Origin: Bacteroidales bacterium
GTDB lineage: Bacteria > Bacteroidota > Bacteroidia > Bacteroidales > FEN-979
Direction: 5' to 3'
Assembly (NCBI GenBank): GCA_028706295.1
Contig: JAQWBQ010000009.1
Location: 8,110 to 72,109, forward strand
Length of the DNA: 64,000 bases
Within the stretch, counting starts at the first letter, position 1. Each line of letters starts with the position of its first letter. Made by a program: the position numbers and the translations under genes. The notes beneath the pieces are model-generated. The model was not told the DNA's origin and searched no databases. It was given only the letters and a program-made list of their open reading frames with translations. This document shows, piece after piece, positions 22,160-42,218 of this stretch.

Positions 22160-23572
22160 CTATAGTTTATTCAATTGGTTCTTCATGATTGAATACAGCT
22201 CCTGTTGATTGATGGGTTTCGAAATATAATCATCAAAGCCCGCTTCAAGCAGTTTCTCCTTATCACCTGTCATGGCATAGGCAGTTTGGGCGACAAAGGG
22301 AACTGTCTTGTACGCTTTGATTTTTTTTCTTACTTCATGCATCAGTTTGATTCCATCCCAGGGTGGGGGAAGGTTGATGTCGAACAACATGATGTCGAAA
22401 ACCTTTCCGGCTTTATATTCCTCTTCAATGACTTTCAGCGCCTCATCTCCATCCATAGTTGTGATTACATTGCCCAATGACTTGGTCATTTCAAAAAGGA
22501 CAATTTTGTTCATAAGGTCATCTTCCACAATAAAAATTTCAAGCCCTTGTAAAGTCTTAAACTTTTCTTTCTTTGTGGGTTCTTTTCGGGGTTGAATCTC
22601 GTCTGTAGTTTTTTCAGGTGGGAAGAAGATAGTCACGGTGGTGCCCATCCCTTTGGCAGATTCAATTTCGATATGCCCGCGCATCATTTCGACCAGGCTT
22701 TTAGCAAGCGGTAATCCCAATCCTGCACCGCTGTTCTCCTTTGTATATCCCAGGCTATCCTGCCTGAAGGGGTCGAAAATTCCCGGCAGATAGGTGGGAT
22801 CTATTCCAATCCCGGTATCCTTGATCCGGATACAGATTTCACCCTTGTCGGTCTGAAAATCGGTCGAAACATTGATAAATCCGTTGGGGGTGTACTTCAC
22901 AGCATTTTCAAGAACGATACTCAGAACTTTATTCAGCCCCTTCTCATCAATGAAAGCAGCCGGTACCTCATTGATCTTGAGATTCAACTTCAGCTTTTGC
23001 TCGTTGGCTTTGAAAATAAACATTTGTGTTGTGTCGGCAACCACATTGTTGAGCTGACATGACTTCAACTTTATTTGCATGTCATTTGCCTCTAACTTGC
23101 TAATATCTAATATGTTATCAAGCAAGTGAGAAAGCTTGTCCCCGCTTTCGGAGATAGCCCTGGCATAATCAAACAACTCTTTATTTTCGAGAAGGGATAT
23201 TTCAGCTTCGAGCAGGCTTGCAAACCCGATAATATTGTTCAGGGGAGTCCGGATCTCATGGCTAAAGTTCGATAAGAAGGCATTCTTCATGAAGTTGGCC
23301 TCTTCAGAACGTTTTAGTGCTCTTTTCAGGGTAAAGTCAGACTTTTCCGGATCGCCTTCTTCTTTTTTCAGTTCTGTTATCTTGTCTTTGATAATCTGAT
23401 CGACTGATTCTTTGGTCTCGGCCAAATCGGCGCTCAGTTTTTTCAAGGCTTGATCTTTTTTCAGTGATTCAGCCCTTAGGCTTTTCAATTTTCCCGAAAG
23501 GAGGATCACAGTCATGATGAGCGCCAATAAAACCAGGCAGGCTATGTAGAACAGCACACTATACAGATTCAT
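22160..23572 (-). CDS. Membrane-anchored hybrid histidine kinase (TM-coiled coil-HisKA-HATPase-REC)
   Basis: One N-terminal TM; [32 protein letters not shown]; [23 protein letters not shown]. Confidence 0.92.
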
Positions 23573-24395: not shown

Positions 24396-26087
24396 TTATT
24401 TGTGATTTATTAAAATGATTTTTCTAACGATCGATTGCTCCAGGGTTTTCAACAGGAGCGAATATACTCCCGCTTGAAACTGTTCTGTTTCCAGTTGTAT
24501 CTTTACGGGACCCGGTCCGGAACCGGGATATTGTTTATTGAAAACGATCCTGCCATTAGCGTCCAGAAGGGTCAATTTCAGATTTGATAAGCGTTCCAGC
24601 GTTACAGAGATATTGATTTTATCTATTGCCGGATTTGGAGATATGGAAACCGTCAGGATGGGTTTATAATGGTCAGGCAGCGCGAGCAGCGCAGAATCCT
24701 GACATTCGAATGCGCCGATATCATAAAGTTTGGCAAACGGCCGGATCCGGTTATGGATGTCGTAAGAAATTTCGAAGCCGGCGATGGTGGCGGCGGTATT
24801 GACAGCCTGGGAGGTCCGGGTCAGGTCAAAATTGCCCTGGGCCGGATCGACAAATCCCACGGTACTGATATCAAGTGATTTAATGTTCTGGACCATACTG
24901 ACCGGGGTTGAGGAAGATCCGATGTAAATGTACGACCGTTCACCCTCAGTTCCGTATGACCCCGGATTGATTAAAATATTATTTGAGATATGATTGTTCG
25001 AGCTTAGATTGTCTTCAAACCTTACACCGTAACTTTTGGGATCGATCACGGTATTGTAAGCAAGGAGGTAGCTGTTTGATGCTGAAGTGAATGTTGAACC
25101 GACAAAAAAGCCGTATTTTAAATAGGGTGCAACGTTTTGTTGGGGTTTATAGGTTCTTCCGGGATTTATGATCAGGTTATTGAAAATCCTTTGGTCCCCA
25201 AGTGAGATGATATCGATTCCATCGCCTTTCCCGTCGCGGATGTCGTTATTGTAACAGGAAGCCTGAGTTCCTCCGCCTAACAGGATCCCTGACATCTGGT
25301 ACATAACTTCAAGTTGGCTGTCATGGAGTATGACATTATCGTGGACGGCGCAGGCAGAGTCGGCGGAACTTACCTGTATCGCATCCCACCCGGTTCCGGA
25401 AACAAAATTTCTGTAAACTTCGACACCCTTTAACAAATGAGGCAGTACAGTTGTATCCTTTTCGTTGCAGGTTATGGTCTGACCCGCATATTTTGAACTG
25501 CCGATATACATTCCTTCCATCCCGGTATCGAAGATAAAGCAATTGTGGATTTTCAAATTTCTGAGGACGAATTTTTCGCGGGTGGATTTGAACTGGCAAT
25601 CGGGTTCCGTTTTTGCAAAAATTCCAACCAGGCCTGTTTTTCCTATTTCAAGGTACTCTAATTCGACATCGGTCGATAGTCCGTCGACCGATAATCCTGC
25701 ACCCACAGTATTGTTAATCTTTATTCCATACACCGAAGCCGGATCCCCGTTCCCTGAGAGTTTTACGTAAGAACAGGAATCGAATTTAATTCCATAATTG
25801 ACACAATTTAAAATAGAGACCACACCACCGCTGTTCAAAATAACAATGGGATTATTTCGTGAGCCATGAAGGAAAGAGAGCAGTAACATGGTCCGGTTTC
25901 CTTTCAACAGGCAGATGGTATCGCCAGGCAAAACTCCTGAGGCATTGGAGCGTCCATCAATCATTGTTACCGTGGAGTCAAAGCTGATTTTACATCCGTT
26001 TGCCTGTTTCCATCCGGTTAAACTTTGCATTCCGGTGATCAGCGACAGAAAAACTATCAGCTTATTTCTGAGGGATTTTTTTAACAT
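24396..26087 (-). CDS. T9SS cargo with right-handed parallel beta-helix (pectin-lyase-like) and type A CTD
   Basis: Asn-ladder repeats (IHNC, VYRN, VHDN, CYNN, IFNNLIIN), RPFAKLYDIGAFE anchor-like motif, CTD ISPNPA...GVYSLLL..RKII. Confidence 0.8.
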   Translation of the reverse strand: MLKKSLRNKLIVFLSLITGMQSLTGWKQANGCKISFDSTVTMIDGRSNASGVLPGDTICLLKGNRTMLLLSFLHGSRNNPIVILNSGGVVSILNCVNYGIKFDSCSYVKLSGNGDPASVYGIKINNTVGAGLSVDGLSTDVELEYLEIGKTGLVGIFAKTEPDCQFKSTREKFVLRNLKIHNCFIFDTGMEGMYIGSSKYAGQTITCNEKDTTVLPHLLKGVEVYRNFVSGTGWDAIQVSSADSACAVHDNVILHDSQLEVMYQMSGILLGGGTQASCYNNDIRDGKGDGIDIISLGDQRIFNNLIINPGRTYKPQQNVAPYLKYGFFVGSTFTSASNSYLLAYNTVIDPKSYGVRFEDNLSSNNHISNNILINPGSYGTEGERSYIYIGSSSTPVSMVQNIKSLDISTVGFVDPAQGNFDLTRTSQAVNTAATIAGFEISYDIHNRIRPFAKLYDIGAFECQDSALLALPDHYKPILTVSISPNPAIDKINISVTLERLSNLKLTLLDANGRIVFNKQYPGSGPGPVKIQLETEQFQAGVYSLLLKTLEQSIVRKIILINHK

Positions 26088-37074: not shown

Positions 37075-39741
37075 CTAAATATTATTCTTTTCACGAAACC
37101 TGAATGTTAAAATCTGTTTGATCGCTCTTCTTAGTTTGGATCTTTGTCTGGGCAATTCACCAAAAACCACATCGAGGTAAATAAGTTCAACACCATTTAA
37201 AACGATTTGCGGGGTCTGCTTGAAAAGTGGTAAAAATGCGTTGAGCGCGCTCTCATCTGCATCTGTCCATGAACGGTTTGCCCGGGTCACGATCAGGCCG
37301 AAATCAAATGCCCGGATCAACTCGAGGGGATAAGAATTGTTGATCAGGGACGGAATTTCAACGAGTACGTAGTCGTAGCCATTCAGATCGAGATGTTCAT
37401 AGCCTACCAGCAGGGAGCTGAGTTCATTTACTTCAAAGAAGTTATCCCGGATTACAAACTGGATTTCATCATCGGTTGGTGGAATCAGCTCGCCGGAAGA
37501 TATATAAGATTGGTTTCCTGATTGTTCTTTTACATAGTTCAGATAAATCACATTTTCGCCGAATGATCTTAGTTTGCGGGTAAGTTCGCGCCCGATGCTG
37601 GTTTTACCTTCTGCATCGCGGGTGCTGAACAATAAGATCATGATGGGTCTCTTGTTGGGCAGGATATTGGAACGGGTCAGGGCAAGTTTGATATTCTGGG
37701 CAAGGATCTCAACGAGTCGGGGCAGAATAAATCCGATATCGACCGAATAGATCTCTTTTCCGATCTGTGGGTAGATACCCGCGACTTTCAGTTTAATAAA
37801 CCGTTCGGCACGTTCGGGGGTTTTGATGGTGGTATCGAAAAATTCAAGGGCCAGCAGGATGGCGGCCATCAGAACAAAGCCTGCAACGGCAGCAATAAGT
37901 ACAAGAAGGAGTGCTTTCGACCGGATCGGATTCAATGGGTAGTAAGGAGCGTCGACCACCTTGAGGTTGGTCGAAAGCTCATCGTCCTGTTGTCGCAATT
38001 TGGCTAAGTTCAAATCGTGAAGCAATTGCAGAAATTCGCTTTCAGTCACGGAAATCAACCGTTCGATGCGTTTCATTTCAGCGCCAAGCGGAGCAAAAAC
38101 CTCATACACCCGCTGAAAATGTTTCTTTCGCTCAGCCAATACCCGCAGGGCGGCCTTGCTCTCTTCATAGGCCACCACATTGGCCAGCCAGGAGTTCAGA
38201 AGGTCCTTTAACGGCAGACCTTCGACGCTGTTGGTGACCAGGTAAAGCCGGTCGATGTTGTTTTTAATTGCGGCTTTAATGTTTTCAACACGCGATTTCA
38301 GCATGGAAAGCTGCTGGATGGTGGCCGAATCATTACCAAGATCGATCTCAATGTTGGCAATTTGCATGGTCGTTTCCGCAAGCTCATTCCTGAGACGGAG
38401 GATGGCGCTCGTGTTGAGTGAAAGTTTCGCGTGTGATTCCAGCTTTTTTTCAATAATTTTAATTGCCGCATCAGAGGAGGCAAAAGCAATTTGTTTATTC
38501 TGAAAAGTCACGTCAAGCTCTTCCTTGGTGATGGCGATCTCCTTGGTCTGCTCGTAGTAGTTGATGATGTTGTTTCGTTCATTAAAGACCAGCAGGTCAT
38601 TTTCTGCTTTCTGAAGCCTGCGGGCTGCATCTTCAAGTTGCCGTCTGAAATACTGAATGACGGCATCCGTCTGGTTTTGCTTTAAAAGCTTATAGTTCCA
38701 GATAAAAACCTTAGTCAGGAAGACCAGGGTCTGCTGGCATATTCCCGGATCAGGGCTCGAGTAAGTCAGCCGGACCAGGTCGCTGTTCTGTACCCGGTAG
38801 ATTCCGACGGTCGAAAGTACTTTTATGCTGTAAAACCGGTCTTCTTCCGAGTTCCACAACTTATAGATAAAGTTATAGTCATTCTGATGGCCGTAGGCCA
38901 GCAAGCGTCTTACAATCCGGTCAAAGGCAGAAGAATCCTGAACGCCTCTCGTTATGGATATCAGGGTATCGGAGGTTGAGAAGTAATCGCGGATTCGGGA
39001 GTTTGAATCGCCGTAAGAGGCCGGGGAGGGTTCGGGTTCATACCCCTGCTCCGGTACCGGTGAAGCTTCGGGTACATCAGCAACAACGGAAACCTGCAGC
39101 TTTTGACCGACCGAAAGGGTATTCCCGGCAAGGTCGTTGATTGATTTTAGGTCGTCGACACTCAGTCCGTTCGAGTGGGCAATTGAATACATGGTTTCAC
39201 CCCGTTTGACGACATGAAATTTGCCGGTGGAAGCGCTCGGGGATTTTACATTGCCGTATTGGGCCTGTCCGCTATTATAATCATTTTCGAAAAGTGCGGT
39301 ATCAAGTTGTGAAGTCCGCCTGGATGGGGCTTTGTAATAACGTTTATCGCTCCTTTTGGCTTTTCTCACGATGTCGAGCACATCGGGCGGGACTTTGGAA
39401 AGGATGTCGTCGTAGTTTTCTTTGGAGATGTAACGGGGGTCGTAATGGTCGAGAAGGAGATGTTGTGCAAGGAGGCTTACGGAAACTTCTTCAAGGGTTT
39501 GACGTGATTTGATAAGGTTGATCAGGTTGTCGAAAGAGGCCATGGTGGCCATCATATCGTAGGAAGTCTGCTGCTGAACAGAATAACCTGAAGTCACGCC
39601 GGTGTATATCGTTGTTTCGGAGTAATAAGACCATTGGCTTTTACGGGTCAGAAAGAAGACCACCGCAGCTATGATCAGCGGCACAAGGATCAGCAGAATG
39701 ATGTGACGCTGTAACAGTTTTATAAAATAAATGATCTTCAT
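37075..39741 (-). CDS. Wzc/GumC-like polysaccharide co-polymerase with inserted LysM and degenerate kinase-like C-domain
   Basis: N-terminal TM, coiled coils, second TM, EFFDTTIKTPERAE, STRDAEGKT. LysM at residues 175-217 (nt 39091-39219). Confidence 0.85.
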   Translation of the reverse strand: MKIIYFIKLLQRHIILLILVPLIIAAVVFFLTRKSQWSYYSETTIYTGVTSGYSVQQQTSYDMMATMASFDNLINLIKSRQTLEEVSVSLLAQHLLLDHYDPRYISKENYDDILSKVPPDVLDIVRKAKRSDKRYYKAPSRRTSQLDTALFENDYNSGQAQYGNVKSPSASTGKFHVVKRGETMYSIAHSNGLSVDDLKSINDLAGNTLSVGQKLQVSVVADVPEASPVPEQGYEPEPSPASYGDSNSRIRDYFSTSDTLISITRGVQDSSAFDRIVRRLLAYGHQNDYNFIYKLWNSEEDRFYSIKVLSTVGIYRVQNSDLVRLTYSSPDPGICQQTLVFLTKVFIWNYKLLKQNQTDAVIQYFRRQLEDAARRLQKAENDLLVFNERNNIINYYEQTKEIAITKEELDVTFQNKQIAFASSDAAIKIIEKKLESHAKLSLNTSAILRLRNELAETTMQIANIEIDLGNDSATIQQLSMLKSRVENIKAAIKNNIDRLYLVTNSVEGLPLKDLLNSWLANVVAYEESKAALRVLAERKKHFQRVYEVFAPLGAEMKRIERLISVTESEFLQLLHDLNLAKLRQQDDELSTNLKVVDAPYYPLNPIRSKALLLVLIAAVAGFVLMAAILLALEFFDTTIKTPERAERFIKLKVAGIYPQIGKEIYSVDIGFILPRLVEILAQNIKLALTRSNILPNKRPIMILLFSTRDAEGKTSIGRELTRKLRSFGENVIYLNYVKEQSGNQSYISSGELIPPTDDEIQFVIRDNFFEVNELSSLLVGYEHLDLNGYDYVLVEIPSLINNSYPLELIRAFDFGLIVTRANRSWTDADESALNAFLPLFKQTPQIVLNGVELIYLDVVFGELPRQRSKLRRAIKQILTFRFREKNNI

Positions 39742-40529
39742 TAATCGATCTTATTGATTACGTTAAACTTGATACCGGCGATTTCCTGTAATATCATATA
39801 TGCATTGTAAAATTCGTTGCGCGCCTGTTCAAAATCGGTAACTGCTTTTCGGTACATTTCATTGATGTAAGCAAGTTCGTACAGCGTGGTCTGACCGTTG
39901 AGAAATTCTTTATCACCCATCTCTTTCTGGAGTGCATTCGCAATGACGTTATCGTTGGCAATTTTCAAAATACGTTGGTTTACGATCAGTTGATTGTACT
40001 GGATAATGATCAGTTTACGCAATTCCACGACCTCATTATCCTTTACTGCCATGGCCTTTTCAACTTCTTTGGTTGCAGTTTTGATCCGGTTTTTTCGGTC
40101 CCATAGGTCGTCCATAGGCATACGTAAGCTGATGCTTGCAAGCGCTCTGTTGTTGTTCTGGTAAGATAAGATGGTATTGTTGTCACCATAATTTGTCTTA
40201 TTGTTGGTCAAAGCATCCCAGACATCATTTTGAAGAAGACCGTCGATATAAAAGTTTTGCATCCATTCGCGACGGGCTGTCTTTACTTTGTATTTCCAGA
40301 TGGAGATATCGGCATCCTGTGAGCGAAGCAGGGGGGAGTGTATGATGGCTGAATCGATCAGATCTTCGAGCGGGGGAATGCGTTGGGTGATATCATCGAC
40401 AAACGGATTAAAGGTGACCGTTGAATCCTGGGGATGGCTGCCGACCTTCATAAATCCCTGTCCCCAAAAGGTAAGCGGGATGACAACCAGGAAAAGAGTC
40501 ATGAAGGCGGTTTCAATTTGTTTTCTCAT
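39741..40529 (-). CDS. TolC/outer-membrane efflux protein family, half-length (262 aa)
   Basis: Signal FWG|Q, LEDLIDSAIIHSPLL, a short beta segment (ISLRMP), then helical KEFLNGQTTLYEL..AYMILQEIAG. Only one OEP repeat. Confidence 0.72.
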   Translation of the reverse strand: MRKQIETAFMTLFLVVIPLTFWGQGFMKVGSHPQDSTVTFNPFVDDITQRIPPLEDLIDSAIIHSPLLRSQDADISIWKYKVKTARREWMQNFYIDGLLQNDVWDALTNNKTNYGDNNTILSYQNNNRALASISLRMPMDDLWDRKNRIKTATKEVEKAMAVKDNEVVELRKLIIIQYNQLIVNQRILKIANDNVIANALQKEMGDKEFLNGQTTLYELAYINEMYRKAVTDFEQARNEFYNAYMILQEIAGIKFNVINKID

Positions 40530-40554: not shown

Positions 40555-41787
40555 TTATACATTTTCTTTTTGAATAAAAACTGCAAACGTCCTAAAAATC
40601 AGGACGATATCACCCCAGAATGAATTGTGTTCTGCATAGTAGTTATCGAGCGCGAATCGTTCCTCCTCCGACATTACTCCTTTTCTGCCTCTTTTCTCGA
40701 CCTGCCACAATCCCGTCAGTCCGGCGGGAGCCCTGAACCGGCGGCTCCATTTTTTCTTGGTAAGGGCTTCGGCTTCATTCAGAGGGAGGGGGCGGTTTCC
40801 CACTATCGACATGTCGCCCTTCATGATGTTGAAAAGCTGGGGCAGCTCATCGATGCTGGTCATCCGGATAAATTTACCCACTTTCGTTATCCTGGGGTCA
40901 TCTTTGATCTTCAGAAAGGCTTTTTTAACGTTCCGTCGTTTGTTGGCCAGTCTTTCGCAAATCTCCTCCCCGTCATAATAAACAACGGGTGAACAGGTCT
41001 GACCCTGGGGTAATTTAGCGCATTCGGAACAACTGTCTTCAACGATATCACTGATGTATTGATTCAGGTGGGCGACGTCTTTGAGCCGTTTGTCAGCATC
41101 GGGGTACATCGACCTGAACTTGTAAAAATCAAAAATGCGGTAATTGGCTCCGACCCTTTTGGAAATATAGTAGACTTTTCCCCTAGACTCCAGAAGTATG
41201 GCGATAACAGTAAGCAACATTATCGGAGAAAGAATAAGCAGTGCAGTCAGGGCGATGGTGATATCAAAAATTCGTTTTGGAAGAGGTGTTTTATAGGGTG
41301 TAATGTCTTCATCCTGAAGCGAAATCGGTTTTGAAACATGTTCCGACTTTAATCTCTTGAGAAAATTGATCCTGCTGTGGATGTTGCTCACATTGATCTC
41401 CTTGTCGTAGTAATCGTCTGCCCCCATATTATAGGCATCCAGTTTCAGACATTTATCACGGAAGAAAGAGATGAGGATATAGGGAGTTTTGGAATATATT
41501 TTTTGTACTTTGATTTTATGGAACAGCGTAAGTCCGTTGATACCGGGAAGATAGTATTCACTTATGATTGCGTCGATCTGCCGGTTTTCGGTGAAGGCTT
41601 TTTCTTCCCTTGCTTCGGTGGTCACATCAAAAAGATGGAAGGTATTTTCGGTCAGCCAGTAAAGCGCGGCAAGGCCATTGGTGAAATGAGTGATATGAAA
41701 AAGTTCACTATTCTGAAACAGGCCAAGATTTACCTGGTCGTTTCCGATATATAATACTTCAAGCCTGTTGGCGGAACCTTCAGCCAT
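40555..41787 (-). CDS. Receiver-domain-fused priming phosphoglycosyl transferase (Bac_transf)
   Basis: REC-like residues 8-145; KRIFDI, FYKFRSM, DDPRITKVG, SIDELPQ, GDMSIVGNRP, PAGLTGLWQV. Confidence 0.9.
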   Translation of the reverse strand: MAEGSANRLEVLYIGNDQVNLGLFQNSELFHITHFTNGLAALYWLTENTFHLFDVTTEAREEKAFTENRQIDAIISEYYLPGINGLTLFHKIKVQKIYSKTPYILISFFRDKCLKLDAYNMGADDYYDKEINVSNIHSRINFLKRLKSEHVSKPISLQDEDITPYKTPLPKRIFDITIALTALLILSPIMLLTVIAILLESRGKVYYISKRVGANYRIFDFYKFRSMYPDADKRLKDVAHLNQYISDIVEDSCSECAKLPQGQTCSPVVYYDGEEICERLANKRRNVKKAFLKIKDDPRITKVGKFIRMTSIDELPQLFNIMKGDMSIVGNRPLPLNEAEALTKKKWSRRFRAPAGLTGLWQVEKRGRKGVMSEEERFALDNYYAEHNSFWGDIVLIFRTFAVFIQKENV

Positions 41788-41792
41788 TTGGT

Positions 41793-42191
41793 TTAGTTTC
41801 CCCTGCGTTGTGTGTATAAATCTCTGAATTCCAACCTTCTTTTGATCCGGGCAATGAGTTCCTTGGGATTAAAGGGTTTCAGCACATAGTCATCAGCGCC
41901 CATTTCAAAACATTTTATTTTATCTGCGCTCTCCTCTTTTCCCGAAAGCATAATCAGGGGAATTTCATCGAAGAAACCGCTTTCCCGGATTCTTTTGATA
42001 AATTCAAATCCATTCAGGACCGGCATCTCGACATCGCAAATGATAAGGTCAGGCAGGTTGCCTGACTGAAGATAAAACAATGCATCCATCCCGTTGCTAA
42101 TGGAAGTTACATCGAAGTCCTTGTTAAACGTGTTTTCGATGATAAACCGGATACTCTTTTCATCATCAATAGCGAGTATCTTTTTTTTCAT
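41793..42191 (-). CDS. Single-domain response regulator
   Basis: ILAIDD, DLIICDVEMP, LSGK, DYVLKPFN, no output domain. Start is ATG 42191. Confidence 0.9.
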   Translation of the reverse strand: MKKKILAIDDEKSIRFIIENTFNKDFDVTSISNGMDALFYLQSGNLPDLIICDVEMPVLNGFEFIKRIRESGFFDEIPLIMLSGKEESADKIKCFEMGADDYVLKPFNPKELIARIKRRLEFRDLYTQRRGN

Positions 42192-42210: not shown

Positions 42211-42218
42211 CAAATATA
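42211..42218 (-). promoter_or_regulatory. -7 element heading the polysaccharide locus
   Basis: CAAATATA on + equals TATATTTG on -, 19 nt before ATG 42191. Confidence 0.7.

Follow-up and report, generated by a model that had tools for sequence, protein, structure and literature searches.

We analysed a stretch of 64,000 nucleotides from a Bacteroidales bacterium (assembly GCA_028706295.1, contig JAQWBQ010000009.1, positions 8,110 to 72,109), called the window below, and focused on a minus-strand gene of its polysaccharide cluster, which encodes a phosphoglycosyl transferase (PGT) of 410 residues with a receiver-like N-terminal domain (N-domain). This N-domain carries Glu at the position of the phospho-acceptor Asp, and the gene directly upstream encodes an intact single-domain response regulator. 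It turned out that the two features occur together throughout the family: the PGT fusions bear a conserved Glu pseudo-receiver, and a free regulator is encoded beside them in nearly every locus whose upstream DNA is present.

A receiver-like domain fused to a PglC-type PGT

Two Pfam domains were found in the PGT protein. Response_reg covers residues 54-140 (44 bits against a cut-off of 30.2), with the N-terminal third of the profile unmatched, and Bac_transf (PF02397) covers residues 171-405 (196 bits against a cut-off of 27). In the AlphaFold model (m1925fcb00207), which was built with 78 relatives as input and reached a mean predicted local distance difference test (pLDDT) score of 82.6, the receiver-fold N-domain is followed by a disordered linker, a single long helix (residues 169-200) and a PglC-like catalytic domain. 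Foldseek supports both halves of the model, the catalytic one by a match to PglC and the N-terminal one by matches to many receiver domains. An earlier note, made from the letters of this DNA, had described a priming glycosyltransferase with a receiver-like N-domain, and Pfam, the model and Foldseek all agree with it; the span that it gave for the domain, 41353-41766, lies inside the true one (about 41338-41787) and covers it only in part.

The best structural match of the catalytic half is PglC of Campylobacter concisus (8e37), with an E value of 3.4e-13 and a template modelling (TM) score of 0.83 normalised to PglC. Its hydrophobic helix contains a conserved Ser187-Pro188, in which Pro188 is invariant and Ser187 nearly invariant among relatives, and this corresponds to the re-entrant membrane helix of monotopic PGTs. 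The catalytic dyad Asp313-Glu314 is invariant in 78 sequences, and so is a K-F-R-S-M motif in the PGT relatives. The model has a single re-entrant helix with a Ser-Pro break, lacks the four-helix bundle of large monotopic PGTs, and finds PglC and not WbaP as its best match, which is the pattern of a small monotopic PGT. In NCBIfam, the C-terminal part falls among the polyprenyl glycosylphosphotransferases, under every equivalog cut-off. Judged from sequence and model, the protein is a small monotopic PGT of the PglC type and the initiating enzyme of an exported-polysaccharide pathway of the Wzx/Wzy type.

The catalytic domain also contains an insertion of about 60 residues, located between the K-F-R-S-M and D-P-R-I-T motifs and modelled with a block pLDDT of 61-85. 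Its four cysteines (Cys4: C253, C256, C265 and C277; window 40957-41031) are invariant in 30 close homologues.

Active site of the N-terminal domain

The modelled N-domain has a complete (beta/alpha)5 receiver fold, consisting of beta1 (residues 9-14), alpha1 (18-26), beta2 (30-35), alpha2 (38-45), beta3 (73-77), alpha3 (85-94), beta4 (103-106), alpha4 (112-121), beta5 (125-127) and alpha5 (133-149). Foldseek gave TM scores of about 0.8 (target-normalised) to many receiver domains, and phmmer against the PDB matched the N-domain to ArlR, PmrA, KdpE and others.

Glu77 is the last residue of beta3 (block pLDDT 95) and is followed by a receiver-typical L-P-G-x-N-G loop, the whole context being D-A-I-I-S-E-Y-Y-L-P-G-I-N-G. 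It aligns with the acceptor Asp of the adjoining regulator in BLASTP and with the equivalent Asp of ArlR in phmmer, which we take to be the phospho-acceptor of ArlR. The end of beta3, where a canonical receiver has Asp, is thus occupied by Glu. After beta1, where the regulator has Asp-Asp-Glu, the N-domain reads Gly15-Asn16-Asp17, and both metal-binding carboxylates of the Mg2+ acidic pair are gone. The other two canonical residues are present in the window protein, with Ser107 as the Thr/Ser after beta4 and Lys129 as the Lys after beta5. The domain is therefore an aspartate-less receiver (ALR), being a receiver by sequence and fold from which the acceptor Asp is absent. Sequence and model support the view that it is a pseudo-receiver (PsR), predicted to be unable to undergo canonical Asp phosphorylation because Glu77 stands at the acceptor position and Gly15-Asn16 at the Mg-binding pair.

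Conservation across the family

The PGT gave thousands of matches in a public protein search. The best 120, which were examined, are about 410 residues long, contain both domains, come from metagenome bins of Bacteroidota where a source is named, and are annotated only as "sugar transferase". We compared a close set of 114 full-length homologues (54-100% identity), and an extended set to which we added 80 loci of species-representative genomes and a further 27 found in a 300-genome sample of the phylum. From these, 159 N-domains could be aligned with hmmalign to a profile of true regulators. Because of an insertion between alpha2 and beta3, beta1 was left unaligned in most of them, and the acidic-pair columns were therefore taken from MAFFT alignments.

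Position 77 is Glu in 99 of the 114 close homologues, the others having Asp (9), Asn (3) or Ser (3), and the acceptor column of the 159 N-domains is similar (Glu 126, Asp 21, Ser 7, Asn 4, Ala 1). Position 16 is more variable among the close homologues (Asn 72, Lys 15, Thr 11, Asp 9), in which the preceding Gly15 is invariant; it is not invariant in the broader family. The Thr/Ser column of the 159 N-domains is mostly Ser (96; Ala 27, Thr 25), while Lys129 is present in only 52 of 114 close homologues and 64 of 159 N-domains. A full catalytic set of five residues was found in none of the 159 N-domains, and where relatives have Asp as the acceptor, the acidic pair is missing as well and so, mostly, is the Lys. 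Judged from these alignments, Glu at the acceptor position is a family trait and not a chance change.

The earlier note had assigned the GAA codon to Glu77 at the acceptor position, had read GND at the acidic pair and had regarded the domain as not phosphorylatable. Pfam, BLASTP, phmmer and the AlphaFold model confirm the first reading and MAFFT the second, and the third agrees with the fold, with the two replacements and with the incomplete catalytic set of every relative. The D/E conservation in orthologues, which the note had named as a check, comes out on the side of Glu in both sets. Its retained Lys proved correct for the window protein but not for the family, in which fewer than half of the close homologues keep it.

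On a quick IQ-TREE phylogeny of the catalytic domains, which is unrooted and carries no claim of an ancestral state (Asp or Glu), the acceptor residue switches several times, and branches with good support require that the Glu state changed at least 4 times. Within the 114 close homologues, beta3 (0.81), the beta3-alpha3 loop L-P-G-x-N-G (0.66) and alpha2 are the most conserved elements of the N-domain, and alpha4 and alpha1 are the least conserved (0.40 each).

In the clade of Bacteroides, Parabacteroides and Prevotella, the N-domain has diverged until it can hardly be identified as a receiver, with scores near zero against the hidden Markov model of the regulators. By hhalign it matches the close family with 97% probability and true regulators with only 72%, and Glu occupies either the acceptor column or the next residue. 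The most receiver-like N-domain (99 bits to the regulator profile) belongs to L073, a locus from a metagenome-assembled genome (MAG) of candidate division KSB1, which shows the arrangement of regulator, N-domain PGT and co-polymerase outside Bacteroidota. This N-domain has an Asp acceptor, yet it lacks the acidic pair and the Lys.

The insertion between alpha2 and beta3 occurs only in the window's own clade, where the segment is 26 residues long versus 6-7 in ordinary receivers and most family members. Phe53 is invariant in it, a conserved W-L-T motif lies just before, and the insertion is located opposite to the former active site of the N-domain.

Two other Asp residues were examined as acceptor candidates. 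Asp54 attracted attention since hhalign paired beta3 of the Bacteroides clade with the F-x-L-F-D motif that ends in this residue. It was rejected because it lies in the clade-specific insertion, is less conserved than Glu77 (kept in 77 of 114 close homologues) and is modelled as a loop, and because family members that lack the insertion show the same D-A-I-x-x-E-x-x-L-P-G motif with Glu in the canonical beta3. Asp72 was rejected as the residue that usually opens beta3 (BLASTP, phmmer). A different Asp at the acceptor site was the outcome that, according to the earlier note, would overturn its reading, and neither of these candidates was accepted.

An intact regulator beside the fusion gene

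The stop codon of the single-domain regulator lies 5 nt before the start codon of the PGT gene. The regulator carries the full D-D, D, S, K catalytic set, just as the earlier note had stated for the stand-alone regulator, and D/E-D, D, S and K are kept in all 70 regulators compared (the one in the window included). From this set, the free regulator can almost certainly be phosphorylated.

To describe synteny, we used searches of related loci and genomes, ORF (open reading frame) calling and phmmer against the window proteins; a locus was counted as informative when its upstream DNA was present, and the counts represent a pattern and not a statistical test, as the genomes are related to each other. 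The regulator is directly upstream of the PGT in 69 of 74 informative loci, and genes for an OEP-like protein and a co-polymerase usually follow. In the 300-genome sample, it is upstream of all N-domain PGTs (14 of 14), compared with 5 of about 13 short PGTs. These five short orthologues (L020, L022, L023, L024 and L029; 243-284 residues) have no N-domain and still have an intact regulator directly upstream, and three of the five also have a kinase. In many distant loci, a histidine kinase is encoded directly upstream of the regulator, and the kinases of distant relatives are large and have another architecture.

The regulator-PGT pair is present in cultured Parabacteroides (P. segnis, P. faecis), Bacteroides finegoldii, Pedobacter (P. 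psychrotolerans), Mucilaginibacter and Plebeiibacterium, and in MAGs assigned to Prevotella, Saprospiraceae, Flavobacteriia, Cytophagaceae and candidate division KSB1. A functional link between the regulator and the pseudo-receiver-PGT is supported indirectly, because of the 5-nt spacing, the synteny (69 of 74 and 14 of 14) and the precedent of EpsW in Myxococcus.

A short motif, TATATTTG, is located at window 42211-42218 (minus strand), 20 nt upstream of the ATG of the regulator, and fits the -7 promoter consensus of Bacteroidota, TAnnTTTG. The listed ORF of the regulator extends 22 codons upstream of this ATG. They are probably not translated, because orthologous regulators begin with M-K-K-K-I-L.

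Proposed mechanism and competing explanations

In the mechanism that we propose, the regulator and the pseudo-receiver-PGT would work as a conserved two-gene unit. The two-component system of the cluster, here two hybrid kinases at its far end, would phosphorylate the free regulator, and in many relatives the phosphorylating kinase would be the one encoded directly upstream of the regulator. The phosphorylated regulator would then affect the PGT protein itself, most likely through a pairing with the pseudo-receiver, and such a receiver/pseudo-receiver pair in trans might turn polymer synthesis on or off at its first committed step. From the tight and ancient linkage of the two genes, we argue that the signal of the regulator may well reach the PGT. 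A docking surface for the phosphorylated regulator, as supposed in the earlier note, would be consistent with the synteny and with the precedent of EpsW and EpsZ.

By sequence and by analogy, the most economical model is that the phosphorylated regulator pairs with the pseudo-receiver and thereby changes the activity or assembly of the PGT. We prefer it only tentatively, with a confidence that falls somewhat short of an even balance, because the regulator is also found beside orthologues without the N-domain and because alpha4 and alpha1 are poorly conserved. Several observations weigh against it. The five short orthologues indicate that the link between regulator and PGT does not strictly need the pseudo-receiver. 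Helix alpha4 is part of the usual dimer face of receivers, and a pattern in which conservation is lowest in alpha4 and alpha1, and highest in beta3, alpha2 and the beta3-alpha3 loop, does not favour the classical alpha4-beta5-alpha5 dimer. Both kinases of the cluster are hybrid, so the phosphate route to the regulator is not fixed by them. Besides, gene adjacency proves co-expression at most, and not contact. The generalisation that many Bacteroidota gate their first exopolysaccharide step in this manner, with the phosphorylated regulator binding a Glu pseudo-receiver on a small monotopic PGT as an allosteric switch in trans, is possible but doubtful.

Alternatively, the pseudo-receiver could be constitutive and independent of any signal. 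Glu77 would be a phosphomimetic that locks an active-like state, the domain would help the protein to self-associate or hold its catalytic part in place at the membrane, and the regulator would have another role. Its target could be, for example, the co-polymerase or exporter or the catalytic domain, or it could draw phosphate from the hybrid kinases as a sink. Aspartate-less receivers replace the acceptor most often with Glu, a residue that is able to mimic aspartyl phosphate (PMC4395418, PMC12632262), it is strongly conserved here together with Ser107, and the short PGT orthologues without an N-domain are still paired with the regulator. However, a phosphomimetic carboxylate would need Lys129 to hold it, and this Lys is present in only 64 of the 159 N-domains, the acceptor changes repeatedly on the PGT tree among Glu, Asp, Ser and others, and small monotopic PGTs are reported to work as monomers (PMC12802240). 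The regulator is also upstream of N-domain PGTs far more consistently than of short ones. We consider this explanation unlikely, though it deserves serious attention.

The pseudo-receiver might also face a kinase or a ligand. It would then either be a decoy or scaffold on which the soluble hybrid kinases dock at the membrane complex, or bind a small molecule, and in this way it would set the local flow of phosphate to the regulator instead of binding the regulator. Kinases and phosphotransferases contact the active-site face of ordinary receivers, and it is the face around the former active site (beta3 and the beta3-alpha3 loop) that is best conserved here. The short regions preceding HisKA in the kinases of the cluster, which have no Pfam match, also suggest that these kinases may need localisation. 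On the other hand, conservation is poor in alpha1, the helix on which the kinase specificity of receivers mainly depends, the kinases of distant relatives are large and differ in architecture, and our literature searches gave no precedent for such a role, which makes it rather improbable.

It is very hard to believe that the N-domain has kept a receiver function, with phosphorylation of Glu77, of another residue such as Asp54 or Asp72, or, in relatives that have one, of an acceptor Asp: Asp does stand at the acceptor in 21 of 159 relatives, and Asp54 lies in a strand-like F-x-L-F-D that hhalign aligned with beta3 of the Bacteroides clade, but no relative has the full catalytic set, those with Asp lack the acidic pair and mostly the Lys, Asp54 belongs to an insertion missing from most members, Asp72 is what beta3 ordinarily begins with, and insertion-free members keep the beta3 motif with Glu.

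The polysaccharide cluster and the genome

The cluster spans about 21 kb of the minus strand, and the pseudo-receiver-PGT is its second gene, after the regulator. It is followed by genes for a 262-residue protein of the OEP family, an 888-residue co-polymerase (Wzz/LysM/GNVR), a Wzx-like flippase and a Wzy-like polymerase, and then by seven glycosyltransferases, a beta-helix protein, a methyltransferase and the two hybrid histidine kinases. The coordinates of the main features are summarised in Table 1.

Table 1. Features of the pseudo-receiver-PGT, the adjoining regulator and the cluster kinases, in window coordinates.
Feature	Position	Strand	Evidence
Pseudo-receiver + small monotopic PGT, 410 aa	40555..41787	(-)	ORF, translation, Pfam Response_reg + Bac_transf
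Predicted pseudo-receiver domain, residues 1-150 (fold ~9-149)	41338..41787	(-)	AlphaFold, Foldseek, phmmer
Gly15-Asn16-Asp17, at the site of the Asp-Asp metal-binding pair after beta1	41737..41745	(-)	MAFFT against bona fide regulators
Clade-specific insertion alpha2-beta3, residues 46-72	41572..41652	(-)	BLASTP, alignments; low pLDDT at 55-60
Codon GAA, Glu77, phospho-acceptor position	41557..41559	(-)	Plus strand TTC; BLASTP, phmmer, AlphaFold
Ser107, conserved Thr/Ser after beta4	41467..41469	(-)	MAFFT and homologue alignments
Lys129, conserved Lys after beta5	41401..41403	(-)	BLASTP, phmmer
Hydrophobic helix, residues 169-200, with conserved Ser187-Pro188 (re-entrant membrane helix of monotopic PGTs)	41188..41283	(-)	Model, invariant columns, PglC match
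PglC-type catalytic domain, residues 171-405	40573..41277	(-)	Pfam Bac_transf, Foldseek, invariant columns
Single-domain response regulator, 132 aa, from ATG at 42191	41793..42191	(-)	Pfam Response_reg, 98 bits
Hybrid histidine kinase 1, HisKA-HATPase_c-receiver, 470 aa, at the far end of the cluster	22160..23572	(-)	Domain search
Hybrid histidine kinase 2, HisKA-HATPase_c-receiver, 450 aa	20806..22158	(-)	Domain search

The OEP-family protein (window 39741-40529, minus strand) contains one OEP (TolC-family) repeat and occupies the position expected for a Wza-type exporter. The order of regulator, PGT, OEP and co-polymerase is widely kept, and the OEP protein comes next after the PGT in nearly all related loci. 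Inside the cluster there is also a right-handed beta-helix protein with a C-terminal sorting domain for type IX secretion (window 24396-26087, minus strand), which might trim the polymer as a secreted lyase or hydrolase of polysaccharides. For both hybrid kinases, Pfam gave no match in the 55-95 residues that precede HisKA.

The genome (4.0 Mb in 149 contigs) contains one receiver-PGT fusion and three other PGT genes. Its nearest relatives are uncultured bins of Bacteroidales/Prolixibacteraceae.

Significance

How undecaprenyl phosphate and nucleotide sugars are rationed among competing glycan pathways is an open question in bacteria. The first demonstration that a response regulator controls an initiating PGT post-translationally dates from 2025 and concerns Myxococcus (PMC12802240), and according to a recent review it remains a mystery how bacterial pseudo-receivers are switched (PMC12632262). 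The combination of an intact regulator and a pseudo-receiver-PGT offers a compact, widespread and testable system that is present in cultured organisms. If the pairing of regulator and pseudo-receiver is true, it would link the rationing of glycan precursors with the switching of pseudo-receivers. If the broader gating in trans also holds, it would cover cultured gut Bacteroides and Parabacteroides and a MAG of Prevotella, assign a defined molecular role to a bacterial pseudo-receiver, and add a second case, with a different mechanism, in which a two-component system controls the PGT protein itself. If the pairing is false, what is left is still a well-delimited annotation subfamily, which databases label only as "sugar transferase".

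Comparison with known systems

The small monotopic PGTs of the PglC type (PF02397; Campylobacter concisus PglC, 8e37 and 8g1n) share with the window PGT the re-entrant helix, the Ser-Pro break, the Asp-Glu dyad and the fold. The window PGT adds to these an N-terminal pseudo-receiver of 150 residues and the Cys4 insertion in the catalytic domain. Like the PglC-type enzymes, it is predicted to be the first glycan enzyme product of its Wzx/Wzy cluster. Fusions of a receiver with a small monotopic PGT were reportedly found by O'Toole, Imperiali and Allen in 2021 in a sequence similarity network, and as far as this account goes they have the same domain architecture as the window PGT. The passages of PMC12802240 that concern these fusions derive them from a sequence similarity network and suggest that they are perhaps regulated differently.

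In aspartate-less receivers, the acceptor is most often replaced by Glu (26%), and the second acidic position frequently has Asn (PMC4395418, PMC12632262). By its sequence, the window pseudo-receiver is in itself typical of this class. Known examples, such as ChxR of Chlamydia (Glu), the plant pseudo-response regulators and fungal Rim15 (Glu), have the receiver fold and a replaced acceptor Asp, as the window N-domain does, but the output of the window pseudo-receiver would be a membrane enzyme and not a DNA-binding or kinase domain. Glycosyl or sugar transferases are unmentioned in PMC4395418 and PMC12632262.

The closest functional precedent is from Myxococcus xanthus, in which the phosphorylated single-domain regulator EpsW (EpsW~P) activates the initiating PGT EpsZ post-translationally (PMC12802240). 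EpsZ is a large monotopic PGT, and EpsW~P is proposed to stabilise the EpsZ dimer through a cytoplasmic domain of unknown function (PMC12802240). The window pair resembles it in that an intact single-domain regulator is genetically linked to a PGT in a polysaccharide cluster. The targets differ, for the EpsZ type is a large monotopic PGT without the dimerisation beta-hairpin, whereas the window PGT is of the small PglC type and has its own pseudo-receiver. A second parallel lies within a single protein. In PleD, the phosphorylatable receiver Rec1 packs on the non-phosphorylatable adaptor receiver Rec2 (structures 1w25 and 2v0n), so that a true and a degenerate receiver together relay a signal to an enzyme domain, as the window pair is supposed to do. 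In PleD, however, the two receivers share a single polypeptide and relay to a diguanylate cyclase, whereas the window pair would form in trans.

The literature that we searched, in which the 2021 network paper is represented only through PMC12802240, has no mention that the receivers of PGT fusions are pseudo-receivers throughout, with a Glu under selection, that they are almost constantly partnered by an intact free regulator, or that the module spans from environmental Bacteroidales to gut genera. In conclusion, receiver-PGT fusions, Glu pseudo-receivers and regulator-activated PGTs are each already known, and what is documented here is their meeting in one module, in which a conserved Glu pseudo-receiver on the PGT is accompanied by a near-constant adjoining free regulator.

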